The position numbers were made by a program, and so were the translations under genes. Positions 153 to 20,000 of a DNA stretch of 20,000 nt are shown in pieces. Each line of letters starts with the position of its first letter. The stretch's first letter is position 1. This DNA is from Rhizaria sp. SCN 62-66. Taxonomy: Eukaryota. The DNA lies in NCBI GenBank assembly GCA_001724265.1, contig MEDY01000109.1, positions 55,262-75,261 of the forward strand, written 5' to 3'. The notes beneath the pieces were generated by a model. The model was given only the letters and a program-made list of their open reading frames with translations. It ran no database searches and was not told where the DNA came from.

Positions 153-308
153 ATGAGGCACAACCTGCTCCGACTGCTAATCGCTGTCGTTGCTTTCTGT
201 GCCTTTGTGGTGGCGTACGACTTGTCGTCGGACGCTTCGGCGGAGGTCTCTCACGAGATGTTCGCTGATTCCACCGTCGACCAGGGTGCCCTGCTCAGCA
301 TCGACGCT

Positions 309-342
<34 letters not shown>

Positions 343-2528
343 TTGACTCTGAGGCCGACGCCGACGTTGATGTCGACGCCGAGGTCGACGAGGAGGCTGA
401 GCTTGACGCTGACCTTGACACCGAGGTTGACGTCGCTGCCGAGGCCGAGTCCGAGACTGAGGACTCTGCTTCCGCCGTTTCCAAGGCCCTCGCTGGCAAC
501 AAGCTCGAGGCTGTTCTCCTCGATGTCCCCGCCGTGACCCGTGTCCGCAACGTCCAGCGTCTCGACGCCCAGATGGACGAGGCGATCATGGCGTCCCTCG
601 CCGAGGCCGAGGACAACGTTGTCCCCATGGCCGTCGACACCGATCTTCTCCACCACACCAACGAGCTCGAGAAGCTCCAGGACCTCCTCGAGTCCGAGGA
701 CGCCATTGAGCGTAAGTTCTCCTCTTTCCTCGACATCGGTGCCGAGGCTGACGCTGAGGCTGAGGCCTACGCCAACGCCTTCACCGAGGCCGAGCTTGAG
801 AACGAGGCCGAGCGCAAGGACGTTCTCAAGGACCTCGACGACGCCCTCGAGGCGAACCAGATCAAGGCCGACGCTTCCGAGCTCGCCAAGTCGTCCAACA
901 CCAAGAGTTTCGCCAAGATTGCTAAGGGCGTCACTGGCGGCATGTCGTCAACCGACTTTGCCCTCTCCCGTGTGCGTTCCGACATGGCCATGGCCCTGAA
1001 CACCAAAAAGCACACGCTTGACCGCGCCGCCGAGATTGCGTACGAGATGGGCAACTACCTCACGCAGTTCAACCGCGCCCACGGCAAGCCCTGCGAGGAC
1101 AAGACCCCCGGTGGCCGCGACCGCCGTCGCCGCCGCCGCCGTGGTGGCCGTGACCGCGACCGCCGTCGCCGTCGCCGCGACTCGCGTGACCGCCGCCGTC
1201 GCCGTCGTGAGTCGCGCGACCGCCGCCGTCGCCGCAACCGCTCCCGCAACACGAACACGCACTCGCACTCGTCTTCATCGTCGTCCACGTCGACGCACTC
1301 GTCCACCAACTCCGTGTCTAACACCAACACCAAGACGGAGAACAACCAGAAGGAGACGATCGTCAAGATCCGTGAGGTGATCAAGTACATGCCGTGCGAC
1401 GGCGAGCGCTGCCGCCCCAAGCCCAGCATCATCAAGATCGTCACTCCGCCCCCGGTCATCAACTACACCCAGGTGCAGCCCCTGCGCTACAAGGATCTCA
1501 AGTCGTTCGACATCACCCCCGCGCGCCAGTGGAACTTCACGCACAAGGTCGACAACTCGTCGTGGCCTTCGCAGCAGAAGCAGACGATCATTTACCAGGT
1601 TCCTGACAAGCAGACGCCCAGCCGCCCCGACCTGCCTATCACCCCGCCCAAGAAGCCCGAGCCGCCGAAGACGCCCCAGCAGGATACGACCCCCCCTGAG
1701 TCTCCTCCCCAGCAGGATACGACCCCCCCTGAGTCTCCTCCCCAGCAGGACACCACTCCTCAGCCGCCTCAGGAACAGACCGACGAGACTCCCCAGCCGC
1801 CCGAGGAGGCACCTCCTCAGCAGCAGGATGAGACTCCCCAGCCGCCCCCCGAGGAGGAGAAGCAGGAGGAGCCGCCTCAGCAGAACGATGAGACTCCCCA
1901 GCCTCCCGAGGAGGAGGAGAAGAAGGAGGAGTCTCCCCCCGAGGACAAGGAGGGCTGGGGCCCCAAGTACGTCGGCGAGGACGAAGGCAAGTCCACCAAC
2001 GGCAAGGCTGCTGCTGGCGGCAGTGCCAACAGCAAGTGCTCTGGCAAGTGCGTCGACAACAAGACCAACACGTGCTCGACCGGCTTCCTGTCCGGCAAGT
2101 GCTCCGGCGCTGCTAACATCCAGTGCTGCACGGGCACGGTGACCGCCAAGGGCGGCGCCGCCTCCACCAGCAGCTCCACCGCGTCGTCGGCCAACCCCAA
2201 GTGCCCTGGCACGTGCGCTGACAACAAGACTAACACTTGCTCCTCGGGCTTCCTCTCGGGCAAGTGCTCCGGCGCCGCGACCGTCCAGTGCTGCACGGGC
2301 ACGCTGACCGCCAAGGGCGCCTCCACCTCGACCAGCGCCAGCTCCACCTCCAGCTCTAGCTCGTCGTCCTCATCGTCCTCATCGTCCTCGTCGTCGTCCA
2401 AGTGCTCTGGCGAATGCGTCAACAGCTCCACGTACAAGTGCTCTGCCGCCTTTCAGTCCGGCAAGTGCCCCGGTGCCGCCAACATCAAGTGCTGCCCCGG
2501 TAAGGCCACCAAGAAGTTCTTCTTCTAA
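153..2528 (+). CDS. Secreted low-complexity protein (~791 aa): signal peptide, acidic Asp/Glu/Ala region, Arg-rich block, Pro/Gln/Glu repeats, three C-terminal 6-Cys modules
   Basis: Uninterrupted ORF with strong C/G third-position bias, ending TAA at 2526-2528 and followed by AT-rich sequence. ATG 153 gives MRHNLLRLLIAVVAFCAFVVAY (basic n-region plus hydrophobic h-region). The upstream ATG 135 lies within a probable intron end (GCTAAC..ACAG, 137-146). Confidence 0.85.
303..341 (+). repeat. (GACGCC)n hexanucleotide repeat encoding (DA)n
   Basis: gacgctgacgccgacgccgacgccgacgccgacgccgac read directly. Confidence 0.9.
1110..1250 (+). repeat. Four ~30-36 nt coding repeats encoding xxRD-R5-7
   Basis: Translation GGRDRRRRRRR GGRDRDRRRRRR DSRDRRRRRR ESRDRRRRR. 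Confidence 0.85.
1674..1945 (+). repeat. Coding tandem repeats PQQDTTPPESP / DETPQPPEE; first two 33-nt units identical
   Basis: ccccagcaggatacgaccccccctgagtctcct at 1674-1706 and 1707-1739, then degenerate copies. Confidence 0.9.
2037..2495 (+). repeat. Three 31-aa Cys-rich modules C-x3-C-x7-C-x8-C-x7-CC (2037-2129, 2202-2294, 2403-2495) with Ser/Thr linkers
   Basis: CSGKCVDNKTNTCSTGFLSGKCSGAANIQCC / CPGTCADNKTNTCSSGFLSGKCSGAATVQCC / CSGECVNSSTYKCSAAFQSGKCPGAANIKCC. Confidence 0.9.
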
Positions 2529-2938
2529 GTGAAGCCTGGTTCAGGGAGCACACGGGGGATCCTACTACTTTGTGTGGGTAGGAATATATACGGTTGGTTG
2601 GTGGGCTATGAACAGTCGATCCGTGACAACTTTTATCTGTGTGGTTGTGCACTTTTTTTGAAAGAACATTTGTTTGATTTCCGATTGTGATCAAGAAAAT
2701 CATTCAAATCAATACAAAATTACTGATATACGAATGTTTCGATTGTTCATCTCATGATGTAAATATGTTGTATTTGTGATAATACATACTGGCCTGCTGT
2801 ATTTTGATTACAGTAGGTGCTATATAACGAATAATACCATCGTGCACAAGACTAAGCTCACGTGAGGCAAGTGACATGACACACGAATGAGACCGCCATC
2901 TGGATCCACCAACCAATTGCAGAAGTACCTTGTATGAC

Positions 2939-3538
2939 TCAGTAGACGTGAACGATGTTGTACAGCATGGTCCAGAAGAGGACGTAGGTCATGAGGGCCT
3001 GAACGACGCCGTCAGTCCATACCGACCACTGGGACGCGAAGTACGTCTAAACAAAGAAAACATTCAAAGGGAACACAATATAATAGTATAAACACGGATT
3101 TATCAGAGTAAAACACGTACAGTCAGATGATTGGTTGCACAATGCTGTGTTTTGCGAAGTGACGTACGGTAGGCTTGAACGAGGTCTTGACCATCAGGAA
3201 GTAGGACAGCAGGGCCATAGAGGCTGCGAAGAATAGCAGGCCGTAGATGCCATCAAAGCCAATAATGCCACATGCACTGCCCGCAAAGAGAGCAACCATT
3301 GAGCGACTGCGGATACAGCGTAGACGCAGCAAACAAAAGAGGAAAGATGACGAACGAAGATGTGAGTAAGAGCAGCCTGTGTGTAGAGCACTACAGTTGA
3401 CAGTGGAGGAAATGTGATGGGCGCACAATCAGTCTATACGAGCGTGTTAAGTACGTACATATTGTTATGGAGCAGGCCGTTCGCAGCGACCTTCTCAGGG
3501 GCCGTGCGCTGAGCAATCGGAGTGCGGTCATCCATCAT
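2939..3538 (-). CDS. EMC6: ER membrane protein complex subunit 6 (Rab5ip family), ~108 aa; exons 3538-3459, 3306-3168, 3046-2939
   Basis: Spliced product MMDDRTPIAQRTAPEKVAANGLLHNNI-RSMVALFAGSACGIIGFDGIYGLLFF...KPT-TYFASQWSVWTDGVVQALMTYVLFWTMLYNIVHVY*. The G-x3-GI(L/I)G-x2-G-x-YG motif and the TYVLFWT..Y..VHVY C-terminus are characteristic of EMC6. Both introns are GTACGT...YAG and frame is preserved (80+139+108=327 nt). Confidence 0.93.
3047..3167 (-). other. Spliceosomal intron 2 of EMC6 (121 nt, phase 0)
   Basis: Minus strand GTACGT...ttttctttgtttAG; removal joins KPT to TYFASQW. Confidence 0.9.
3307..3458 (-). other. Spliceosomal intron 1 of EMC6 (152 nt, phase 2)
   Basis: Minus strand AT|GTACGT, branch-like TACTCAC, pyrimidine tract, ccgCAG|T CGC. 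Confidence 0.7.
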
Positions 3539-4045
3539 GGTCCCGACGGGGAGCTAAAGGAGCACGCAGTGAAGACAAATCACATATTCATGAGCCATAA
3601 TATAGACAACAGACAATTAATCGCGATGAAAATCTGTCGCATACAAATTCGTCCCTAATGACGATCAGATGACCGTGATATAGCATCATATTCTTGTCAC
3701 TCGCATAGCAGGCAGTCTTCGTCGCTTCTTTTTTTTGTGGCGTGTAGTCTGTTTGAAATTGCCTAAAAAAACGGTGCTGATACGACACTGTTCCATCGTG
3801 TGGTGCAATTATTATGCACTGTCCAGGAAATTCTACGTTATTTTCTATTATTCGTGCTTTTATATTGCTTGAGTCCCTCACCATGCTGGCCACGACTCAC
3901 TTTTGTGACCCCTTCTTTCCCACTCCTCGCACAGTCGTAGAGACACACTTTCCCTGCGCATACACACGCCACACAACTTCTCTTACTGACAAACGCACTC
4001 TCACCTACACAAGACACTCCCAGGCCGGGGTCTGCGCGTAGTCAC
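3539..4045. promoter_or_regulatory. Divergent (probably bidirectional) promoter/5' UTR region between EMC6 and the TM calpain
   Basis: 507-nt lower-GC spacer between head-to-head start codons; inferred from gene geometry only. Confidence 0.5.
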
Positions 4046-7000
4046 ATGGGGTGGAACCCCTTCTCCGGCGCGTCCCTGGCGACGGACGCCTCCGAGCACG
4101 AAGTGTTGTCCTACTCGATGATTGTGTTCGCGATCCCGTTCGTGCTCTACTGCGTCGCCGCGTACTACTTCTACTCGCTCATTAAGTGGGACCCGTCGCT
4201 TGCCGGCGCCTGGCTCTCCGGCCGCATCACAGAGCTGGGGCTCATCGTGCCCCTCGCCACCGTCCCCGCCGCCAACACCGCTGCAGGCGCCGGCACAGAC
4301 GCCAAATCCACCGCCGACGCCGACGCCGCAGCCGACGCCGCAGCCGCGGCCGCCGCTATTGCTGCGGGCGAGGACCCCGACGCCGCCGTGGCCGCGCTGG
4401 CCCGCGCGCGCGCGCGCACCGCGGCCGCCGCCGCCCGCGCGCGCCGCCGGCACACGGCCGACAACGACGCCATCTTTGCACGCGTGTACCCGTTCTTCCG
4501 CATCTACGCCAACGGCGTCTCGGCAGCCGTGCTGCTCGTGCTGCTGGCGTGGGGCGGCGTGCTGTGCTATCGCGTCTCGCTGCTGCTTACGGTCACGCTC
4601 ATGTGCTGGTGCGCGACGCTGCTGCACCTGGTCTTCGCGCTGCGCCAGTGGCGGCTCGCGATGTGGCGGCTCGACTCGGCCATCGTGAGCAAGTTTGTGC
4701 GCGCCGCCGTGATTATCGCGGTTTACCACGTCGTGCTCGTGCTGCTTACGCGGCCCTACGAGTGGATCGGCTTCGCTGCCATGTTCATGATGTTCAACGT
4801 GCTGCCCGTCATCGTGCTCGCGTTCCGCGGGTTCGAGTCGCACAACCTACTCTCTCCCGCTGTGGACCGCACGGCAGACGCGTTCAACTCCAGCGACGAC
4901 GAGGACGGCATTGACAGCGCGTCCGACGACGACGATGAGACGAACAGCGCCGCTCAGACGGCGCTCGGCCTCGGCAGCGGCCAGTCCGGCCCCAGCTCCG
5001 GCTCTGGAGCTGGCTCTGCTAGCGGGCGCATCGCGGGCGGCGTCGGCCCCAATTCGGCCATCGCGCGCTACTGCCGCGACGTCGGCCTGCGCATTCCGCT
5101 TGCCGGGGCTGACACCACCGCGATCGCCAAGGCCGACAGGGCCGAAAAAATCGAAATGATTTTGGGGACCGTGGGCCGCGGCTTGTCGGGCGCGAGCGCG
5201 ACGAAGAAGCAGGCGATGCTGATCCGCCGTGGACGCGGCGGCGGCGGCAGCGACGGCGACGGCGGCAGTGCGAGCGCTGCCGAGGCTGCGCTTGCCGTGA
5301 AAGAGAGCAAGTCAGGCGGCACCGGCGCTGCGAGTGGTGGCGGTACTGGTGGTGGGGGTAATCGGTTCACTCCGGCCGAGAGCTCTGACGACGACGTCGC
5401 AGCGTCGGATGAGGGCAGTGACACGGAGGAGGCCGGCAACATCCGGTCCATGGACTGGTGGCACAAACAGCAAGAGGCGCTGAACAAGACAGCCCCTTAC
5501 ATTCTGCCGCCCTTAGAGTCCGTCGAATACCTTGTGGCGATCCCACAAAAGAGAGCGAGGAACGATACCAGTGACCACGACGACAGCCGTAGCCCGAGTC
5601 TGATGCCGGGCAACGACAGCCTCCGCAATGATTCCGCTTTCCCGCTCAACAACCTCAGCTTCACGAACAGCAACGCCGGCGCCAATACAACAAACATCAC
5701 CGCCGACGGCTCCAACGGTGGGCGTGGTCGCGGCGGCGGCGGTGGTGGTGGTGGTGGCCGCCGCCGGTTCCGTCAGCGACCGACTCTGAGCAATGACCAA
5801 GTCCAGGGCCTGCTGCTGCGCGAGTATGCGCGCGAGCTCGAGTCGGATAACACGGCGCTGCTGCGCACGTTCAACCTCATCTCGACCGCCGCGGGCGACG
5901 GCGGCGGCAACCACGGGGACGCTGCCGCGCTCGCCGCCGCCTCCGCTGCCGCGGCCGCCGCGGCCTCGCCCGGCGGTGGCGACTCTGCCGGTGCCGGCAA
6001 CGGCGATGACGGTGGCGACGGCGGCGGCGGTGGTGGCGGCGGAGACCAGCGGTTGCGCGCCCTGCGGCAGCAGCGGCACCGGCGCCGCGCCCGCGCCGCC
6101 CGCGCGCGCCGCGCCAACGTTGCGGAGCTGCAGCGGCATCCGCTAACCATGGGCGGCGCGGTGCTGTTGTACCTTGCTGCCGTCGTCGTGCTGCTGCTCT
6201 ACGGCGGGCTCGCGCTGTGGCTGCTCGAGGACGGCGGCGCCGGGTTTGTCACCGTCGCCGCGGTGCTCGTGCTCGACATCATCATCTTCCTCACCGTCTC
6301 CTCCTCGGGCACCGGCACCGGGACCAACGGCGGCGGCGCGGCCAACAGTGCCGGCGCTGCTGCTGGCGGTGGCGCGGGCGCCGCTGCGGGGGCCGCGGGT
6401 GGTGCCGCTGGCGCAGGCGGGGACGGAGGCCAAGCAGCTTCCTGGTCGTCCTCGAAGATTAATTTCGACACGTCGCGGCACCCGATCGCGATCTGCATTC
6501 TCCTGGTGACCGTGCGCCTGTTCCTGGTGCTGTTCGGCCGCGACTACTGGCTCGTGGGCCACGCGGCGATGTTCTTCTTCCTCTCCATCTACCTAGGCGC
6601 CGACGTCATCGACATCGTGCTGCCACCGGTCGGCGAGGACCTCTTCTCCTTTGCCGTCGCCGCGCGCCGCCGCGCCGGCGGGGACGGCGCGCGCATGCAG
6701 ATGACCGTGGGCGCCGTACAGCAGCTGGCCAGCCTCGTGCTCGAGGCGCGCGCGCTGCAGAAGAGCCGCTTTGAGCGCGCGCAGAAGGAGTTCATGGCTA
6801 AGGTGCGCGCCGCGGCCGCCCAGGGCGGGCTCTCGCTTGAGACGCTCTTTACGGACAGTGGCGACGGCGGTGCCGCGGCTGGAGCGGTGAGCACCATCTC
6901 CGCTAACGCGACCGCGAGCGCGAATGCTCGTACCGCTGCGGGCGGCGCGAACGGCGGCGCCACCTCTGCCGTGGCCGCCGCCACTGCCGCCGCCGCGACC

Positions 7001-10000
7001 GCCGCCGCCTCCGCTGCAGCGACCGGGAGCATCGGCGACGGCACCCCCGCGCACATGTCGGCGCCTGACCCCGAGGACCTGCTGCGCACTCGGCTGCACC
7101 ACAACGCCCACGGCGGCAACTCCGGCGCCGGCGCCGGCGCGGGCAGCGAAGGCGGCGTGTCGCGCACGTCGCGTGCGCTTGTTTTCGTGCGCTTCTGGTT
7201 CCTCACCTTCATCTTCATCGGCGAAGTCGCGATCGTCGTGCTGACGTCGTCGGGCTCCTTCGGCCACATCTTCTCCACCGCGGGCCCTGTCGCCGGCGTC
7301 GCAGCGCTGGGGCTGGCGTTTGCGCTGCTGGCGATCCGCGTGATGTACCGCGTGTACGCCAACAACGGCTACTCTGTCACGCCGGGGCTTGCCCTCGGCA
7401 TCTTCGTCGGCGTCGCCGCCTGCGCCGCTGCCGGCGTCGCCCACTGGGCGATTACGCACACCAGCACCGTGCTCATCTGCACATGCTTTATCCCAACGCT
7501 GCTGCTCCTGTTCCTCAGCGCCGTGACCAAGTGGGCGCTCAACGACTACCGCATCCTGTCCCCTGCGCTGCACCGCAGTCCGCCGCTGGCGCCGTTTCTC
7601 CCCGCGCTGCTGCGTCTGCGGCTGCCGTCGTCGGACTTAGTACAGCTCGCTTCGCACGCGCTCTTCGTCATACTCACCGTCGCCTTTGGCTACCTTATCT
7701 CTTACGAGCTGTCGTCGCACGCCACGGGCGGCTTCTCCGGCGGCATCGGCTGGATCGGCGTCATCGCCGCCATGGCGCTGCTGGTGCTCATCCTCACCGG
7801 GCTCACCGTGATTGAGTGGTTCATGACCTTCGAGCTCGCGCTGCCCGCTGTGGCGCGCCTCACCGTCGCGCTCCTCGTCTTCACCGGGTCCTGCGCCTAC
7901 GTGTTCTGGGGCGTTATCGTCCCCGGCTTTAGCGCCGACTCCATGCCCTACGCGCTCATCCTGCTCTCTGTTGTGTTTGCGTACCCGATCATCACCGTCG
8001 CGCTCTTCTGCGGGTTCCACATCGTCGACTCTCACGGCCAGGTCTCCGGCGGCACGCGCGCCGCGCTGATCGGGTGCTTCGCGCTCGTGCTCGTGTACCT
8101 GCTCATCGCGGCCATCTTCTTCGAGCCGTGGCTTGTGTACGTGCTCCTGCTCGTCGGGCTTGCCGCGGCCGCCGTGCTGCTGTTCCTTGTCCCCTGGGTT
8201 GCCGCCATCGGCCGCATCGCGCTGCAGTGTTACATGCTGCTGCTCGTCGTCATGGCCTTCGCAGTCGCCTGGCTGCTCGGCAACTTCGTAACCTTCTTCC
8301 TGGGACTCACCGCGACTGTGGTCGTGTTGTGGTGCATCCTCATCGCGTTCACCAAGGCCGCGTATGACGCACATGCGAGCAGCGACGACAAGTACTTCAT
8401 CAACACTGTCTACGGCTCCTCAATCTTCATCTGGTCGCCGTATCTCTTCCCGCTGCGTGTATTTACACCGCGCATGACCTCGCAGCTCGAGAACCCCATC
8501 TCGGAGCGCTCTGATCTGGTCTTGTGTCTGCTTGCCTGTGCTCTCGTGCCGTACGCTTACGCGCTGGCGACCGTGCACTTCATCCGTCCCGCGAGCATCG
8601 GGCTCGGGCTCGCCGCGCTGACAATGACCGCGTTCATCACGCTGCTCTTCCACCTGCGCCACAAGGCCTCGGCGCACTATGACTCGCTCCACGCATCGCT
8701 GTCCTTCCTCAAGCCCGGTTCCGAAAAAATTGCGCACGGCGTGCTGACCGCACAGGTGGCGGCATCAGTGATCCTGACCCGCGCCGCGCCGCTGGGGCTG
8801 CTGGCGGCGCCGCCTGCGGTGCGCGCGCTCGTGGTCAACCTGCAGGCGTTCAAAAGCAAGGCCGAGGCCTACGGCGCCGTGCGCGACGTAGTGGACTGGG
8901 CGTGTGTGGGCGAGACGCTGCAGCGCGCCGGCGTTGACACGACTGCACACTCGCCGTTACGCATTGCGGGCGCGTGGGAGAGAGCCAAGTCACGCGCCAG
9001 CAGCGTTGGCAGGAGCAACAGCGGCCGCGGCACGAAGTTTGGCAACGGCGGAATCTCTGCGTTTGGCATCAACTTGGACTCGATTCCAGAGCTGTTAGAC
9101 CACAGCGAAGATGCAAACAACATCAATAGCAATAGCGATAGCGCGGTCACCAGTACTGGCGGTAACGGCAGCGGCGAGATGGGCCGGCGCTCGTTGCTGT
9201 CGCCGCAGCTTACCGCGTTCGCTAATAGGCTCATGCCGACCGCGGCCCGCTCGCCCGCTGCCGGAGTAACGACCCCCACAGCCAACAGCCCTACGATGGG
9301 CCCCGGCGCCGCCCCGCCGCCGCAGCGTCTCGCGTCGCTGCTGTCTCCCAGCGGCGCCAGCGCGAGCGCAATGCCCGCGATCGCTCTGCTGCCCTCGCTC
9401 GCGCCCTCTGTCGCGAGCGGCCACGGCAGCAAAACGGGCAACGGCCCTCTGTCACCGCGTGCGACGCCCAGGAACACCGCTGGCGGCGGCGCCGGCGCGA
9501 GCCCTGCTGCCGCGACGAACCCTGACTTGGCAATTGCACCCAGCGTGACCGTGACCGGCTCGTTCGCGCTCGACGCCCTGCTGGCCCCGCCCTCGTGGCT
9601 GCCCGCGGACACGCGCTCCCCTCTCGAGGCCACCGTTGCAACCGCCGCCGCAGCCGCGGCCACGACCGCGGCGACATACGCCGGCACGTTCCCCGCGCCC
9701 GGGCTAAGTACCCCTTTAGACCGCGTGGGCACGAGTGTGCTTGCGCCGCCGCCGCCCGTGACCGCGTCGGCGCACGCACTAGGCGCGTGTCTGTCCCGCC
9801 TGTCTTCAGAGCAAGTTGCGCTGCTGCTGAGCGTGGTGACGTCGCACTGGGTACACTTGGCGCGGCGCACGTGTCTGCTCAAGAGTCAGATTGACGAGCT
9901 GAATGTGCTGGCGAGGATTGTGGGCAAGGGACTGGCGGTGCTGCCCACATCAATGTCGCAGTCACGCAAGAAGAAGAATAACAGTAATAGTCTTCACAGC

Positions 10001-12703
10001 GCGACGACTGTCGTCCCGAACAACGGCAACAACAACGCGGATGCAAACTCTGCCAGCGAACAACAGTTACTTCAGCGTGAGTCTTCATCGAGTAGCAGCA
10101 GTTCCACCAATAATGCAGCGGCTGCCCGCAACCGAGCTCGCGCTAAGACAGCTGTGCCGGCCACGACGATCAAGTTCACTCTCAGCACTGTCTCCTGCCT
10201 TGGCAAGCCCGCACGGTCCTTCCTGTTCCCGTTCCCGGTCTCGCTGCTGCGCCGCGCCGCCGCCCACGCGTACAGCTGGCAGCTGCAGCAACCGCGTCTG
10301 CATCCGCGGTACGTGCAGCGCGCCAACGCGATTCTCGCCGCAGCCGCTTCCACCGCGAATACGAACGCGAACGAGCTTGCAGCACAACAGCTCGCTCGGT
10401 CCGCCTCTGGATCAGGCAGCACCCTCGCCGCCGATGGCATGTACAGCGCCGCTGAAATCGCCCGCGCGCAGAATCAGCGGCTTACCTTCCTCGACCCCGC
10501 GCTGGGCTCGACGCGCGTGCTGGCGCGGCTGACGAGCCTTGCACGCTGCGGTCGTGATTATACGTTTTCACTGCGGCAGGCGCACCGGCTGCTCGGCGCG
10601 ATGGACTCCGCGGCAAACTACTCATACGCGCTGTCGACGCTCTTCACGCTGACGTGGCAGTGCGAACTCGTGCGGTACGTGCGGTCGCAGGTGCACGACG
10701 CCAACGTGGCCGCGCTCAAGGCGCTCTACGCTGTGGGGCTCGACGCAGTCACGCTGGCCGACCTCGACGCGCTGCCGCTGCTGGGCGCGGACCGCGAGAC
10801 GGTGGGCGAGGTGTTGGGCGTGCTCACGGTCATCCGCGAGGACGAGGAGAAGTTCAGCGCCGCGATGGCCGAGCGCGAGGAGCGGCTGCAGCGCGCGGTC
10901 GCGGCGGCCAAGGGGGGCCCTGTTGCTGGCGCACACGCGCACCCCAGCAGCCCGCTGACCGCGGCGCTGGGCCGTGAGAACGGTGCGGCCGGCGCGGCAC
11001 TGCTGGGCGGGTTCCGCGTCAAAGCGAAGCCGCAACGCGGCCACGCGGGGTCTCGCGCCGGCTCTGTCGAGCACCATGTTGAAGAAAAAGAGGGTGAGTC
11101 CCGCAGCATGATGTTATCGCCTGGCCCTGCACCCATAGTCTCGATGGGTTATGCTCCAAACAACATCAATAACAATGACACTGTATCTGCAGGCCGCAGT
11201 GCGTTTTTCGCTGCCGGCTCGCACTCCGCGCTCCAGCCGACTCCCTCTAGCAGCAATGGCAACGGGGCCGGGACTGGTCTTGCGCAACTGTCACCGATGA
11301 CGCTGTCTCCTGTGATGGAGGCGCAGCGTAACTTCGACCCCGTTGCGCCTGCAGTTCCCGCCAACAGCAGGACGAGTTATAGCACTAGCAAGTCTCTGGA
11401 CTTCCTTCAGAGCTTGCACGACCGTGAGCAGCAGAACAACCGTGAGCGTGAGCGTAAACAGGACTTGGAGCAAGTCAAGGAAGAGGAGGAAGAGGAAGAC
11501 GGTGTATTCTCGAGTCATCGTGGTCTCGCTGCCTTCACTAAGCCGGCCAACCCAGCGGTGGCGCCTCAGTCAACAACGAATGTAACGAGTGTTGACGCTA
11601 ACGTCGCCCCTGCAGCTCTTGATGATGACAGTAGCATCACTGACCAAGACGACGACGACGATGACGACGACCACTTCGGTGGTGGCGAGTCCGCTGCCCT
11701 TGCTTTTGTCACCAACACGATTACCCTCGCGCCAGTTAATCACACTGAAAACACCATTGACACCGGCCATAACACTCGTGATGACGCTACCTCCGAGACT
11801 GCGCCTGTCACTGAGCCCGCAGCGACAACTCCAGCTCCCGCAGCCGACCCTGTCATTGACTCGGCTACTGCTGCACCTGCACCTGAGCCTGCTACAGTCA
11901 CACCTGAGTCTGACTTGCAGGCATACTCGCAGTCCCAACCAGAGGCGCCGCTACAGGAGCCTCCACAGGAGCCGCCGCAGCTTCCGTCGCCGGCCCCGTT
12001 GCAGCCTCAGCCCGCGCCGCGCAGGTCGGTCGGCTTCAGCGCCACGGCGCAGGTCCGCGACTTCGACGCCAGCGAGCCCCCCGCGTCCGTGCGCGCGAGC
12101 GCTGAGACCGGCGGCGGCAGTGGCGACCGTGAGCAGCGGGTGACCGCGCTCGACGACAGCGGCGCGGTGGACTCGTCCGCGACTGTGGGCGATGGCGCAA
12201 GTAGCACCGGCGCAGTCAGCGCTGGTGTGGGCGCAGCGGCTGAGGAGAGTGGCGACTACAGCGACGACTTCGACAGCTCAGACGCCGATGTCAGCGTCAG
12301 CAGTGCCGCCGGCCCTCTCCCTGCGCCCCCGCTGCCGCCTCTCCCCCGTCCCACAGTCCGCGTCTCACACGGCCACCGCAGCACCGCGCACACTGCGCAG
12401 CTGCCCCGCGCCGACTACGACGACTGCGACGGCGGCGACGGCTCCGGCTCGGTCGGCGGCGGCGCCAGCTCTGCCGCGGACCGTCTGCGCGCCGAGCGCG
12501 AGGCCCGGCGCAACGCGCTCGCGACTGGAACCGCCGCCGCCGCCGCCGCCGCCGCGCCCGCTACTCCGGCGCCCGCTCCTGTGACTCCAGCGGCCCCGGC
12601 GATGACGGACGCAGAGCGGGAGCGGGCGGAGCGCGAAGCCCGGCGCAACGCGCGCGCCCCGAGCACCATCGTCGCCCCTGCAACTGCCACTGTCCCCGCT
12701 GTC

Positions 12704-12771
<68 letters not shown>

Positions 12772-15700
12772 TGCGAGTGCGGTCGACGCCGAGCGCGCAG
12801 AGCGTGAGGCCCGTCGTCTCGCCCGCGAGGCCGCCACGGGCAACGCGCCGACCGTGCCTGCGGCTCCTGCCCCTGCGCCTGTGCCTGCAATGAATGCGGC
12901 CGAGATCGAACGTGCCGAACGCGAAGCGCGCCGCGCCGCCCGCGAAACCGCAACCTCTGCCCCGACCACCAGCGCCACTGGCAGCGACCCCGGCAGCAGC
13001 GCCGACCGGTGGCGCGCGTCGGTGCGCTCGTGGCGCGGCGACTGCCTCCGCGAAGAGGCCGTGCTGCAGCGCAAGCAGGACCACGTCGACTCGCTGCTGC
13101 TCGACATCGAGTCGTTGCAGCGCCGCCGCAAGGCCGCGTTTGAGCGCGCCACCGCGGCTGCCGCCACGTCCGCCACGGGGGCTGAGAAGCTGCTCAAGGC
13201 GACCGTGGGCAGCGGCACTGTCTCCGAGGCGGAGCGCGCGAAGCGCGAGGCGAGCGACAAGCTGCTGGCTGAGCTGGCCACGAAGAAGCAGCAGCTCACG
13301 CGCGTGGCGAGCATGATCGAAGGGTTTGCGAAGAAGATGTGGGACAAGTTTGCTGGGGAAGAGCGCGTGTTCGCGCAGAGCACCGAAGCCGGCGCGCGCG
13401 GGTACGAGCGCGAGTTCGGGCTCCGCTACCAGGGCGCGCAGCCCAGTCGGCTGAGCGCGTATAGTGAGCTTCCGGGCGGCTGCCTCGTCACCAGCGACGA
13501 CGACGGCGACGACGGCGGCGCGGGGGCCGGTGCGGGCAGCGGTGGTAGTGTTGCCGCCGTGGGGCTCTCGTCTCTGAAGCCCTCCGCGAGCGCCGCCGCT
13601 GCTGCGACGACCGGGATGACTGAGGTCGAGAAGGCGCGTGCTGAGCGTGAGGCGCGCCGCGCCGCAGTGCAAGGATAGCAACAGCCAGCTGCGCCGGCTG
13701 CGGCCGCAGCGAGCTCTGTGGGCGATGAGCGCGACGAGAGGGCAGCGCGCCGCAAAGCCATTGAGGAGGCGCAACAGCAGAAGAACCAAGCTGCTGCCAG
13801 TCCTGCTGCTGCTGCTGTTGCGAGAGCTAGCATTGCCGAGACTACCGATCCTAACTCGGTGCAGTCGTACGCGGGCATCGAGGCGACGCACGCGAGCACT
13901 GTCGCCAGCGCCGCGTTTGACGAAGCGGTGAAGCGCTCGCAGCAGCAGTCGCTCGCGCCGCAGCTTCCCAAGCGCCCCACTCCTAGTGCGAACGCCGCGC
14001 CGCGGGCGCAGCTGACCAGTCCGTCGGCGAGCGAGACCGAGGCCGACATGGAGGCCGCGATCGCGGCGTTCCTGTCGTCGAACAACCCCGTGAACAAGAT
14101 CCTGAAGGACCTGGCGGCCAAGGGCGAGTCGGCCTTCACGGACCCCGGGTTCGAGTCGCAGCACGCGCTCTTCATGTCCGACTGGTTCGACGATGCTGAC
14201 GTATCGCGCTGGGCGCCCACGGCCAAGAAGTGGGTCTGGCGCCGCCTCTCGGACTGGATTGAGCAGGAGCACGGCCAGCAGGCCGTGTTGTTCGACGCCA
14301 CGCTGTCGCCAGACGACATCAAGCAGGGTGCGCTGTCTGACTGCTACTATCTGTCGTCGCTCGCCACGCTCACGCTGCGGCAAGACCTCTTCTGGAAGGT
14401 GTTCGTGACCACGAACGCGTCCTCGGCGGGCATCTACGTGTTCCAGTTCAACAAGAACGGCCGCTGGGTGCAGGTCGTCGTGGACGATCTCGTGCCCTTC
14501 GAGTCGGTCTCCGTGTTCGGCGTCGACGGCAAGCCGAAGCGCATCACGCGGCCCGCGTTCGTGTCGTGCCATGAGCCGAGCGAGATGTGGGCGGTGCTGG
14601 CCGAGAAGGCCTACGCCAAGCTGCATCATTCATACCAGGCGATCGAGAACGGCTACGTCGACGCCGCCCTCGTCGACCTCACTGGCGGCGTCGGCGAGCG
14701 CTGGAACTGGGACGACGACGACACGATCAAAGAGCAGTTGCGCGACGGCACGCTGTGGATGCGCCTCGTCAAGGCTTTCCAGTACGGCTACCTCCTCGGC
14801 TGCGGCTCCCCCGAGGGCGCCGACGACAGCGAGGCCAACGCGTCCAAGTGGGGCATTATCCAGTCGCACGCGTACTCGATCCTCGCCGTGGCGCAAGTCG
14901 ACTCGCTGCAGCTGCTGCAGCTGCGCAACCCGTGGGGCCGCAAGGAGTGGACCGGCGACTGGGCCGACTCGTCCCCGCTCTGGGCGCAGTCCGGCGGGCG
15001 CCGCCTCGTCGCCAAGCTCGGCATCGGCGACGTCGAGCAGAAGGACGACGGCAAGTTCTGGATCGCATGGGAAGACTTCACGGTGCACTTCAACGAGCTG
15101 TACATTTGCAAGGTCTTCTCGCAGCAGCTCTGGCCCGAGCGCGGCGACTTCACCTCGCTCTGGACCCACGCGACGCAGACGGTACAGTTCGCCGTCACCC
15201 CACTGAGCGACGCGCCGACGACGATCGTGCTGGCGCTGGAGCAGGACGACGTGCGCGGCGACCTTACCCGCCTCGAACTCTGGTTCCCGTCCATCACGCT
15301 CACCGTGTACGACTCGCTCGGCCTGCCCGTCGACGTCGACGCCGTGCCCGCGACGGCGCGTCTGCTCGCGCACAGCACGTGCGAGGATCGCGCGGCGTCG
15401 GTGGAGCTGGTGCTGACGCGTAAGCCCGCGCTGGGGGTCGACGCGCTGCCGTCGCCGCAGATGCAGGCGCGCGCGCGCAAGCGGCTGCAGCGCGCGCTCG
15501 ACGCCGCCGGAAGCGACGCGGGTGGCGCCGCCGGCGCGGGCGCTGCGGGCGCGGCCGGCTCTGTCGCCAGCGTTGGCGGCGCGCTCGCGGGCGTTCTGCA
15601 GAAGGCGTCGCAGTCCGGAGCAGCGATGAAGAAGGAGAAGGCAGCTCCGGCTGCTGCTGCGAGCGCGACGACGGGCACTAAGGCCAAGCTCAGGGGCAAG

Positions 15701-18700
15701 GGCAGCGCGCCGCCCCTGCCGTCCGCTGCAGAGGTGCCCGTATCGCCGGCTTCTGCGCCCGCGCTGGCCCGGTCCGAGACTAGCCAGTTCGCGTTCTTAG
15801 CAGGAGCGCTGAATGAGCAGGCGCGTGCCGTCGAACGGGAGCGTTTGCGAGCCCGCAATGCGAACAACGCGCTCGACAGTAAAGATACCGCTGAAGCTGC
15901 CGCCGGTGGCGGTGAACTGGCTGACAATGAGCCCGATGTGGCTTGGGGCCGCGCGGAAACCGTGATCCCCAGTCTAGGCGCACTGGCTGAGGCGGGGAAT
16001 CTTTCCATCGCAAGCTCCGAGGCCGACGTTATCAGACCTGCAGTCCCGTCCAACGAGAATCTTGACGACAACAAGGCCGACTCCGATGCTGATGCCGAAG
16101 AAAGCGTTGGCCTCGCGAAGAAGAGCAAGTCGCGTCGCCGCGAGAAGCTGGGCGTGGGCCCCGTCATGGTTGACACGTCGATGCTCGCTGCGCCCGACTC
16201 GCCGGCCACGCTGGCGCGCAAGGCGGCCGCCGCGGCCGCTGCGGCGGCGACGCAGGCCGCGGAGTCCGCTCTCGCGGCCGCCTCCGCAGCCCCGGCGCAG
16301 GCGCCAGCGCCCAGTGCGCCGCCGGCCGCCGCCCCGATCCCGGCGCCGAAGCCCCCGGCGCAGCGCGCGCAGTCCAAGGCCCAGGCGCAGCCCGCGCAGT
16401 CGCCGGCGCCACCCCAGTCCGAGGCGGTGAAGCGGCTCGGCGGCCTCGGCCTCATCGGCGGCGGCGGCAGCAGCACAACCAGCAGCCTGCGGCGCCTGGC
16501 CCCGAACAAGCCCGGCAGCGCCTCGAGCGTCACGGGCGCCGGGCGTCCTGGCGGCATGCCGGCGGGCTCGCGTGGCCGCGCCGCGCAGCACAACGCTCTC
16601 GCCACGGTCGCCAGCCTGAGCGGCAACGGCGCCGCGAACCCGGCCGCCGCCGCCGTCGTTGCGCCGCCGCCCGTGTTCTTCACGCCGCGCGCGTCCGTCC
16701 GCGCCGCCGCCGCGCACAGCCACTCCACGGCGCACAGCCAGTCGAGCAGGGCGGCGCGCGCACAGTCGGCAGGCGTGTCCGCTGCGGCCGCGGCGTCCGT
16801 GATGGGCGCGAACGCGGCGCTGCTGATGCCGCGCCGGTCGGCGTTGTTCGGCGGCGGCAGTGCGTGGGACCGGTCCCGCGCCCGGCAGAGCATCATCGCC
16901 ACGCAGACGAGCGCGAGCGCAAGCGCGATCAGCGAGGTTGCTGCAGAGCAAGACTCTCAGTCTTCTAATGATCAGCGCAGCGCGCGCAAGGCTGCCAAGG
17001 GCGATGGTCCCGGCGATAGTGATCCTGAAGAGAAGGACGAAGATGACGAAGACGATGAGTACTATACCGCGGGCATTGCGCCAGGTCTTCTTGGCCCCGG
17101 CGGCAAGCCCGACTCGCCGATGTCAATCTCGCGGTCAAGTCTGCGTCTCAACGCCTTCTACGGCAGCAACACTGACGACCACAGCGACGACGGCGCCGGC
17201 AACGACAACGGAGGCACTGAGAGCAACCACAGCGCCGCCCTCCCGCGCACGCTCGCGACCAACGCCAACTACAACGGTGGCCACCTTGGTGGCAACGGTG
17301 CTCGCAACACGGTGAAGTGGGCGGAGGACAGTCCCGGCAAGGTCAGGACTGCGCACCGCGCACAGCAGCAGCGGTTCAACCTGTTCTCGCATCAGCAAAG
17401 CTTCCTTGACGCTGATAATAGCCCAATGAACGATAACTACGATAGGAACAACGCTGGATCTGGTCCTGCTGCTGATCTCAACTCGGCTTTTGATGAGAAC
17501 GCCGACCTATTCCAGCAGCAGCAGCCCCAGCGCGGCGATGGCCCCCTTGCTGCCCCTCCCGTGCCGCCGTCCGCCTCGCGCCCCGCTGCGGCCTCCGCAG
17601 CCAGCGCGAAGTCCGCTGCGGCCGCCGCTGAGGAGGAAGAGAGCGACTGTGAGCCCGACGACACGCTCGACTGCTTCGACCCCGTGGCGGCGTACCGCCC
17701 GTACACCGTCGTCGCCACGGTTGTACTGCACCCGGTACGTAAACAACAAGTCGTATTTTCACGATTTCCCTTAAATATGCACATCATATCTCCTTAAGCT
17801 TTAAATCTCACTTACTCACTTAAATTCTATTTTGTTCGTTTCCTCTTTTCACTACAGGAATGGCCGGCCACCAAGTTCCAGCTGCGCTGGTTCTGCTCCG
17901 CCATGTGCGCGATCGAGTCGTTCCCGCAGCTCGCGGCCCGCGTGCGCGGCGACGACGCCTTCGCAGCCGCCGCCGCGCGCAAGGCCGCCGTCGAGGCCTA
18001 CGACGAGCTACGCCGCAAGGAAAAGGGCGAGGACGAAAACGGCAACGCCGTCACGGCCGGCGGTGGTAACGATGACCAAGACGACGACAGCGGCAGCAGC
18101 GGCGGGAGCAGCAGCAGCAGCAGCGCGAGCAGTAGCAAGACTGCTGCAAGTAGCACTGTTAGCAACGTTGACAAGGAGCGCGAGGCGCGCAGGGCCGAAC
18201 GTGAGGCCGCTGTCGCCGCTTCAACGGCTACAACCACCGCCGCTAAGGCGGCGACGCCTGCTGCGACCGTGGGCAGCGCGAGTACCGCGAGTGCCATGAG
18301 TGCGGCAGACCGCGAGCGCGCAGAACGCGAGGCGCGCCGTGCAGGGCGCGAATCTGCGACGACGGTTGTGGCCGCGCCCGCCCCCGCCCCCGCCCCTGCC
18401 CCTGCTCCTGCTGCAATGAGCGCGGCTGAGCGCGAGCGCGCGGAGCGGGAGGCGCGCCGCAGCGCCCGCGAGACCGCCACCGCTACGACTACAACCACAA
18501 CTGCAACTACACCTGCGACTACAACTGCATCTGCAAGTGCAGCGGTAGCCGGCGGGCCCGCGAACCTGGCTCAGGCTGCGGACGTTGTGCGCGCCGAGCG
18601 CGAGGCTCGGCGCGCTGCGCTCGAGGCCGCGAGCAGCGCCCAAACCACGACGACTGCAACTGCAACTGCAACGACCAAGACCACCGCTGCTGCGACGAAG

Positions 18701-18847
18701 ACTACAACCACAGCGACAGCGACAGCGACCGCTGCGAAGACTGCGACGACGACGGCAGCTGCGGCGTCCAAGACGTCGACGACGAAGGAGACCGAGGTTG
18801 AGAGGGAGCGGCGGCTGCGCGAGGAGCGGCGCGCTCAGCGCGGCTAA
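4046..18847 (+). CDS. Giant DEK1-like/TML transmembrane calpain (~4,892 aa if TAG 13676-13678 is decoded); exons 4046-17734 and 17858-18847
   Basis: ORFs 4046-13678 and 13679-17734 are in the same frame, separated only by one TAG. About 23 hydrophobic segments lie N-terminally, followed by a CysPc domain and a C2L-like region. A GTACGT..CAG intron joins HP|EWPATKFQLRWF to the last exon, which ends TAA. Confidence 0.8.
4103..8652 (+). other. Multi-pass membrane region, about 23 TM helices counted by eye, in clusters separated by Gly/Ala/Asp-rich loops
   Basis: Many 19-25 aa hydrophobic stretches, e.g. MIVFAIPFVLYCVAAYYFY, AVLLYLAAVVVLLLYGGLALWLL, WLVYVLLLVGLAAAAVLLFLVPWV. Confidence 0.8.
12707..12766 (+). 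repeat. Perfect (GCT)20 microsatellite encoding poly-Ala
   Basis: 60 nt of uninterrupted GCT in frame. Confidence 0.95.
13676..13678 (+). other. In-frame TAG within the calpain gene (candidate readthrough/recoded codon or nonsense lesion)
   Basis: GTG CAA GGA TAG CAA CAG CCA GCT; the frame is open for 3,210 codons before and 1,352 codons after, up to the intron. Confidence 0.85.
14135..15112 (+). other. Calpain catalytic domain (CysPc, peptidase family C2) with intact triad: Cys 14342, His 14867, Asn 14927
   Basis: Motifs FTDPGF, WRRLSD, DIKQGALSDCYYLSSLATL, GRWVQVVVDDLVP, EMWAVLAEKAYAKLHHSYQAIENG, ALVDLTGG, GIIQSHAYSIL, LLQLRNPWGRKEWTGDWAD, DDGKFWIAWEDF. Confidence 0.97.
17735..17857 (+). 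other. Spliceosomal intron of the calpain gene (123 nt, phase 0)
   Basis: CCG|GTACGT, AT-rich body with in-frame TAA, branch-like TACTCAC (~17813), pyrimidine tract, ctaCAG|GAA. Confidence 0.9.
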
Positions 18848-19343: not shown

Positions 19344-19365
19344 CTTATATGTTTGAGGGGTTGGC

Positions 19366-20000
19366 TTACTCGTCATCCGAGTCGGAGTCAGCCATCAAAG
19401 CGCGCTGCTTGGCGGCCTTGGCAATCTAAAGTACGAAAAGAGAAAAGAGAACACAAAAAAATGTAATAATCAATCAGCATGAGACACAATTAACCGCACG
19501 ACGATCAGATCCGCATACAAATGTAAAACTACATTAAAATGCATGCTAAAATGTACGGCAAGCTCATGATATCCAATGCATTCGTATTGGCATATGTTTG
19601 TAATGGTGAACGTACGGTGACGGCCTCGTCGACGATCTCCTTAGGGACGGAGACGGCCTTGTAACTGCTGGCGGCGCACTGCCACATCATCTCGACCTCA
19701 AAGGGCTTGTCCTTGACGTCGTCGTGGAGCTTGTGGAGGATAAGCGCAATGAGCGCCACGGCCTCGCGGACCGTGATTTGGTCGAAGCGGATCTTCTCCA
19801 GCTCCGTCTTGGCGCCCTGGCGGTGGCGGCCCACGGCCACGGCGTGCTGCTTCAGCACCACGCCCGTGGGCGCGATCGAGTAGAGCGCGGCGCCGTCCTC
19901 TTCGTCGTAGGTCGACATGACGGCCGACACGCCGTAGGGCCGCTCGGACCAGTAGATGGTCGTGGTGTGGACGCGGCCGCCGACGCGCTCGGCCAGCACG
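19366..20000 (-). CDS. PSMA3: 20S proteasome subunit alpha-7 (alpha type-3), 5'-truncated by the window edge; exons >20000-19616 and 19425-19366
   Basis: LAERV..VH..TIYWSERPYG, GRHRQGAKTELEKI, HDDVKDKPFEVEMMW and an acidic tail (ADSDSDDE*) match the PSMA3/Pre10 pattern. The intron is GTACGT...tactttAG. Confidence 0.92.
19426..19615 (-). other. Last intron of PSMA3 (190 nt, phase 0)
   Basis: Minus strand ACC|GTACGT...ctcttttcgtactttAG|ATT GCC AAG. Confidence 0.9.

Follow-up and report, generated by a model that had tools for sequence, protein, structure and literature searches.

How is a single in-frame TAG codon to be understood when it separates the membrane half of a giant calpain gene from its protease half? 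The gene in question lies in a stretch of 20,000 nucleotides (the window) from Rhizaria sp. SCN 62-66 (assembly GCA_001724265.1, contig MEDY01000109.1, positions 55,262 to 75,261 of the forward strand), and position numbers in the following are those of the window. The TAG is real in the DNA, the gene was ancestrally one unit and its downstream half is intact. How the codon is used by the cell is a matter of weighing, and we favour, with even confidence, a genuine nonsense allele situated in the linker between membrane domain and protease, accompanied at most by unselected leakage. The initial annotation had placed a nonsense allele and readthrough on an equal footing; the nonsense allele is retained from that proposal as a possibility, the equality is not, and the nonsense allele is judged the more likely of the two.

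One ancestral gene interrupted by a real TAG

The elements on which the argument relies are the following.

4046 to 13675, plus strand: reading frame before the TAG, 3,210 codons that encode the membrane domain plus a long linker of low complexity
4103 to 8650, plus strand: multi-pass membrane region (residues 20-1535), about 22 hydrophobic segments with long loops
12488 to 13669, plus strand: linker array of five RAEREARR repeats, of which the last copy (13637-13660) is followed by AAVQG up to the TAG
13676 to 13678, plus strand: in-frame TAG, codon 3211, within GTG CAA GGA TAG CAA CAG CCA, identical in the metagenome loci L001 and L002 (see below)
13679 to 13684, plus strand: 3' context CAA CAG, in which CAR is matched and YYA is not (4 of 6 positions of CARYYA)
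13679 to 14047, plus strand: ATG-less stretch from the TAG to the next ATG, 123 in-frame codons, the only open frame of the three
14048 to 14050, plus strand: next in-frame ATG past the TAG (residue 3335), context GACATGG
14135 to 15112, plus strand: CysPc catalytic domain, Pfam PF00648 (Peptidase_C2), E 2.2e-70, model positions 1-297 of 297
15113 to 17734, plus strand: rest of exon 1, a post-CysPc segment conserved with the homologues P0005 and P0007 and, after it, an insert of low complexity (at least about 600 residues)
17735 to 17857, plus strand: intron of 123 nucleotides, GTACGT...ACAG, GC 0.33, containing an in-frame TAA at 17795
17858 to 18847, plus strand: last exon, 329 codons and the TAA (18845-18847), with four RAEREARR repeats

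Exon 1 (4046-17734, plus strand) runs for 4,563 codons from the ATG at 4046 and contains one in-frame stop, compared to 76 and 134 stops in the other two frames over the same distance, so that the single-stop open frame is far beyond chance. Read from stop to stop with the standard code, the same plus-strand frame is open at 3941-13678, 13679-17797 and 17798-18847. The continuous 4,563-codon exon with just one TAG, as originally described, is therefore borne out. Joining exon 1 to the last exon across the intron gives 4,893 codons including the final TAA, hence 4,892 residues, and this, together with the 3,210 codons ahead of the TAG, matches the protein sizes of 3,210 and about 4,890 residues estimated earlier. 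The splice at 17735-17857 is confirmed by homology because the exon ends are contiguous in P0005, with the end of exon 1 aligning around P0005 residues 704-754 and the start of exon 2 around residues 757-822.

The sequence surrounding the TAG has the character of coding DNA. GC content is 0.70 at 13501-14000, as against 0.40-0.48 in the DNA that follows positions 2528 and 18847, where genes truly end, and we thus agree with the annotation that GC-rich, coding-style sequence extends to both sides of the stop without an AT-rich gap. The GC content at third codon positions (GC3) is 0.7-0.9 across the TAG junction, 0.82-0.92 from 13826 on and 0.8-0.96 downstream. The next in-frame ATG had correctly been located at 14048. 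The RAEREARR repeat, of which five copies precede the TAG, recurs beyond it as one degenerate copy at 13736 (20 codons on) and as the four copies of the last exon (18179-18620); occurrence on both sides, noted before, means that a repeat-and-spacer array spans the stop.

The protease half appears complete with regard to catalysis. The CysPc domain begins 152 codons past the TAG and has its catalytic residues intact, namely Cys3433 (14342-14344), His3608 (14867-14869) and Asn3628 (14927-14929). The best match among solved structures is calpain-9 (1ziv_A, E 1.3e-44), in an alignment where all three catalytic motifs (Cys, His, Asn) coincide, and identity of the domain to plant DEK1 is about 40%. 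The CysPc-C2L arrangement ascribed to this half was confirmed in its first part only: Pfam finds Peptidase_C2 alone, and even with the E-value threshold relaxed to 10 none of the window, P0005 and P0007 matched Calpain_III (PF01067, C2L/CBSW). To judge from the sequence, a diverged beta-sandwich may still follow CysPc, beyond detection by Pfam. The conserved post-CysPc region is split by the low-complexity insert (15700-17650, plus strand), which is longer by several hundred residues than in P0005, where the conserved blocks flanking the insert site are only about 100 residues apart. The second-best match to the protease half, P0004 (2,051 residues), consists of four tandem CysPc-C2L units; this multi-calpain arrangement has no relation to the membrane-anchored type.

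The upstream half was analysed for hydrophobic segments on the Kyte-Doolittle scale (19-residue windows, mean of at least 1.8). Of the 24 windows above threshold, one is poly-Ala and two overlap, leaving the approximately 22 segments listed above; the same scan returned none downstream of the TAG. No Pfam family was recognised in the upstream half (3,211-residue translation of 4043-13675, E up to 0.01). The membrane region is followed by the linker of about 1,700-1,800 residues, which is mostly of low complexity.

Judged from their homologues, the two halves are ancestrally one gene, because these homologues keep the membrane part and CysPc in one chain. Protein P0007 (2,270 residues, a single open reading frame (ORF) on a metagenome contig) is collinear with residues 201-260, 706-860, 1078-1559 and 2175-2245 of the upstream half, which aligns to its N-terminal 1,260 residues, and it also aligns with residues 3307-3762 of the downstream half, in the CysPc region, at 39% identity. 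When the membrane core (residues 700-1600) served as query, an exhaustive HMMER search matched only 21 out of 1.84 billion representative proteins. Peptidase_C2 is present in four of them, that is, in all three of at least 1,700 residues (P0126, P0011, P0135) and in the fragment P0144, and these relatives occur both with and without Calpain_III. The other 17 lack a Pfam family; 16 of these have 165-857 residues and are probably contig fragments, and one has 1,501 residues. In P0007, P0126, P0011 and P0135 one chain extends from the membrane domain through to CysPc; the codon exactly homologous to the TAG is not alignable in them. The order MEM/TML-linker-CysPc(-C2L) is described as one of four ancient calpain architectures in PMC3563603 and PMC10762896. 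The single gene that the annotation had proposed is thus supported by the collinearity of P0007 with both halves, by Peptidase_C2 in every long membrane-core homologue and by a published architecture. Considered as a membrane-anchored calpain (Type 1, MEM-Linker-CysPc), the gene has the CysPc core and the homologous multi-pass membrane domain; its chain is interrupted at codon 3211 and would be continuous only if the TAG were read through. It is a new, very large member of a known, sparsely sampled family.

That the TAG belongs to the DNA, and not to one particular assembly of it, is indicated by further records. Metagenome contigs of JGI, scanned with the first 574 residues after the TAG, yielded two loci, both carrying the TAG: L001 (9,814 nucleotides) is 100% identical to window positions 8360-18173 and L002 (1,168 nucleotides) to positions 12624-13791, in each case with no mismatch or gap. 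Since both loci have the codon, an error private to one assembly is unlikely, and the base-call error that had been put forward as equally plausible loses its standing accordingly, two other assemblies having the same TAG. The downstream ORF is present in the protein collection in three versions that differ only in the called start; P0124 is that of L001, P0003 was called on a single Logan/ENA contig, and P0123 goes back to five such contigs, the longest of 114 kb. P0003 and P0124 start at the first GTG past the TAG (13718), as is usual for an ORF caller that meets a stop immediately before. The upstream ORF was looked up as exact sequence in three versions, none of which is in the protein collection. 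All copies represent the same genotype and are therefore silent on evolutionary conservation of the TAG.

Competing accounts of the stop codon

A nonsense allele is favoured because patterns of this kind most often have that cause, and because there is no recoding signal beyond the CAA that follows the stop. TAG occurs once in the 4,893 codons of the calpain gene and is absent from the open frame of the neighbouring 798-codon gene; a single TAG fits a point mutation, not a reassigned codon. Events may be envisaged as follows. One ancestral gene would have encoded a giant membrane-anchored calpain, in which a linker of about 1,700-1,800 residues joined about 22 membrane segments to CysPc. The simplest origin of the stop would be a change, presumably in the direction from CAG to TAG, in a Gln-rich spot. 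Termination at the TAG would be the main outcome, with the effect that a 3,210-residue membrane protein without protease is formed, or that the mRNA is destabilised. The protease half would be made, if at all, by low-level, unselected misreading of UAG, somewhat aided by the CAA. The lesion would be recent, or would be confined to one of the two alleles in a heterozygous diploid, given that the downstream sequence shows no other decay. Homologues are uninterrupted, as expected of a nonsense allele; further decay downstream of the stop, also expected, was not found.

Several observations weigh against this reading. The TAG is present in every copy examined and a sense codon in none, and there is no direct sign of a variant allele. 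The 1,681 codons past the TAG show no further stop or frameshift, and an undecayed downstream half makes a nonsense lesion compatible only with recent origin; the intact catalytic triad and the sustained GC3 are also what continued translation would be expected to produce. In addition, CAA is a rare Gln codon in this gene (23 of 4,893 codons, compared to 129 for CAG). It follows only 6 of the 678 codons that are one substitution away from TAG, and 3 of the 129 CAG codons, so a random nonsense mutation would land before CAA in about 1-2% of cases. This coincidence was recognised post hoc and is of modest weight. Lastly, no orthologue was found that is close enough to reveal the ancestral codon at the TAG site. 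The nearest homologue of the protease half, P0005, has 52% identity over 379 CysPc residues and is called as an ORF of 1,164 residues without the membrane part; local alignment of the approximately 170 P0005 residues before CysPc to the sequence on either side of the TAG was no better than that of shuffles (z -1.3 and +1.1). A search for long fused orthologues (2,510-7,987 residues) gave two weak matches among 1,460 scored candidates, at 28-31% identity and neither orthologous. A protein search centred on the junction (304-968 residues) gave no match among 8,000 scored candidates but missed even the window's own fragments, so that it carries no information.

The strongest competitor of the nonsense allele is programmed readthrough, which we consider unlikely. 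According to this proposal, a near-cognate tRNA would decode the UAG-CAA at a set and perhaps regulated rate, such that the gene gives mostly the 3,210-residue protein together with a minor, 4,892-residue tethered calpain. It draws on the presence of the TAG in all three assemblies, on the flawlessness of the downstream codons with their catalytic triad, and on an in-frame coding signature that persists through the 123 ATG-less codons after the stop. The immediate context provides further support. The claimed UAG-CAA-CAG, with CAA in agreement and the full YYA not, is exactly what the DNA has; the C at +4 and the CAA at +4 to +6 form the first half of UAG-CAR-YYA, the type I readthrough motif as it is given in PMC3542737, and the same scarcity of CAA after comparable codons that counts against a random mutation counts here in favour. 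The Drosophila kelch gene, as described in 10.1101/2020.06.22.165522, offers a precedent for two long ORFs joined by readthrough in a cellular gene. However, the YYA half of the motif is unmet (CAG), and the mRNA downstream of the stop has nothing conspicuous to add: the 100 nucleotides from the TAG onward hold no unusual stimulatory 3' structure (minimum free energy -42.9, mean of dinucleotide shuffles -42.7, z -0.05; 90 of the 200 shuffles folded equally well), and the RNA-structure hypothesis was rejected since the fold is no better than that of shuffles. Scans for tRNA genes and for Rfam families found none of either in the window. Apart from the CAA, no signal of programmed decoding stands out. 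With all copies of one genotype, conservation lends no support, and in the homologues the chain runs without interruption. Compared to nonsense alleles, programmed readthrough at internal stops is, in our prior judgement, rare. A search of the literature collection available to us found no paper on stop codon readthrough of a calpain in a protist, and the terms "stop codon" and "pseudogene" are absent from PMC3563603.

Fission of the gene, still in progress, would place the functional start of the protease at the ATG at 14048, from which a free cytosolic calpain might arise, next to a separate membrane protein, by internal transcription start or internal initiation; the stop would be tolerated for that reason. 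We regard this as improbable. The ATG is suitably located, 29 codons before the Pfam start of CysPc, and its context (GACATGG) resembles that of the gene's own start (CACATGG). A free protease could plausibly be functional, given that PMC10762896 has the calpain of plant DEK1 freed by autocatalytic cleavage in the linker as a proposal. The closest homologue, P0005, is moreover called without a membrane part, but it derives from a contig of 6,149 nucleotides and may be a partial call. Against fission speaks the composition of the 369 nucleotides from TAG to ATG, whose GC content of 0.68-0.70 and in-frame periodicity are unlike the AT-rich flanks (GC 0.40-0.48) or a promoter. Reinitiation after 3,210 codons is generally not to be expected.

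A consensus error shared by the assemblies or arising systematically, the true base giving a sense codon, is very unlikely. The copies are 100% identical, the assemblies may share reads and independence of the read sets is not provable from sequence, so an error could have been passed on. Against it, the three assemblies bear different record names and concur on the codon, the ORFs called on additional Logan/ENA contigs likewise begin past the stop, and the site is not a homopolymer.

There is still less to be said for the TAG being read as an amino acid, either under a variant nuclear code or by a naturally occurring suppressor tRNA, in which case the gene would simply be intact. Some protists do have nuclear codes in which TAG is a sense codon (NCBI table 15), and the three gene ends visible in the window are all TAA, none of them TAG or TGA. 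Yet an established sense codon should recur, and a single TAG stands here against 129 CAG and 23 CAA; nor is there a tRNA gene in the window. Among special amino acids, selenocysteine was set aside because the codon is not TGA, and pyrrolysine because its decoding from TAG is not known outside prokaryotes.

Removal of the TAG from the transcript, through editing or splicing of an unconventional intron, is the least credible account of all: even though 840 pairs of GT..AG (up to 1,500 nucleotides apart, deleting the TAG, keeping frame and CysPc) could serve in principle, an intron was rejected because none of them starts with GTAC[GA]T, the form of the confirmed intron, because all candidates of at least 40 nucleotides have a GC content of at least 0.64, where the first 100 nucleotides after GTAC[GA]T sites in the window's AT-rich DNA have 0.33-0.48, and because the GC3 across the region is that of coding sequence. 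Ten of the 840 pairs begin with GTACGA at 13402. The earlier statement that no GTACGT intron lies at the TAG is upheld, the nearest plus-strand sites being at 10675 and 17735.

Neighbouring genes in the window

Upstream of the calpain gene, a 798-codon open frame (153-2528, plus strand) encodes a hydrophobic N-terminus, long Asp/Ala-rich repeats (DADADA...) and a Cys-rich C-terminus; it ends in TAA and has no Pfam family, and a CTAAC...CAG motif ahead of it hints at an upstream intron. The seemingly intergenic stretch of 1.5 kb between this frame and the calpain gene appears to harbour a small multi-exon gene on the minus strand (2900-3545), with an ATG near 3540, GTACGT 5' splice sites at 3458 and 3167, and GC-richer, exon-like blocks. 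At the other end, a proteasome subunit gene (19360-20000, minus strand; PF00227, E 4.6e-19) runs off the window; it has at least one AT-rich intron, which begins with GTACAT and extends downward from about 19556, and its TAA stop lies near 19367. In the protein atlas the proteasome fragment fell into generic eukaryotic clusters only. The three visible gene ends that use TAA (2526-2528, 18845-18847 and about 19367) are too few to interpret.

Significance and comparison with known systems

If the nonsense allele is correct, the result is an ordinary one, a natural truncation of a membrane-anchored calpain in a GC-rich protist. It also adds an unusually large Type 1 member to a sparsely sampled family, the search of 1.84 billion representatives having matched only 21 relatives of the membrane core. 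If instead readthrough were true, the UAG-CAA would set the ratio of a protease-less membrane protein to a rare tethered calpain, so that the dose of membrane-tethered protease would be determined by recoding. It would be the first calpain under recoding control, with an unusually long cellular extension (1,681 codons), and the site would be in that part of the protein where DEK1 is proposed to self-cleave and set its protease free. It would also constitute a natural experiment in the separation of anchor from protease, which bears on the question of what role a DEK1-like membrane domain plays.

In its overall design the protein resembles plant DEK1, sharing with it a large multi-pass membrane domain at the N-terminus (over 15 segments), a linker that is both long and variable, and a CysPc with Cys, His and Asn. 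It is distinct from DEK1 in that the chain is broken by a TAG in the linker, in its size of 4,892 residues, about twice that of DEK1, and in the low-complexity insert that splits the conserved post-CysPc region. The linker of about 1,700-1,800 residues compares to 336-1,293 residues in three examples from PMC10762896, the same source that lists 54 non-plant membrane calpains. Unlike streptophyte DEK1, for which that paper describes an LGL domain in the linker, the window protein has neither Calpain_III/CBSW nor LGL detected by Pfam.

Regarding the stop itself, there are analogies to recoded genes on the one hand and to null alleles on the other. With the ORF1-UGA-ORF2 arrangement of Drosophila kelch it has in common the single in-frame stop between two long frames, from which a short and a long product are conceivable. 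For kelch, 10.1101/2020.06.22.165522 describes a UGA stop, a predicted 3' stem-loop suggested to stimulate readthrough and a long product that was detected; the stop of the window is UAG, is followed by no unusual structure and is known here from DNA alone. The type I signal of tobamoviruses, as found in PMC3542737, likewise places CAA after UAG, but it has YYA at +7 to +9 where the window has CAG, and it is a viral motif as opposed to one of a protist cellular gene. Compared to an ordinary null allele or young pseudogene with a single nonsense codon, the locus is unusual in that no sense-codon allele was seen, that the downstream 5 kb are flawless and that the stop context is partly leaky; it conforms to such an allele in lacking a recoding signal that stands out, and in having one stop in a gene that is continuous in its homologues.

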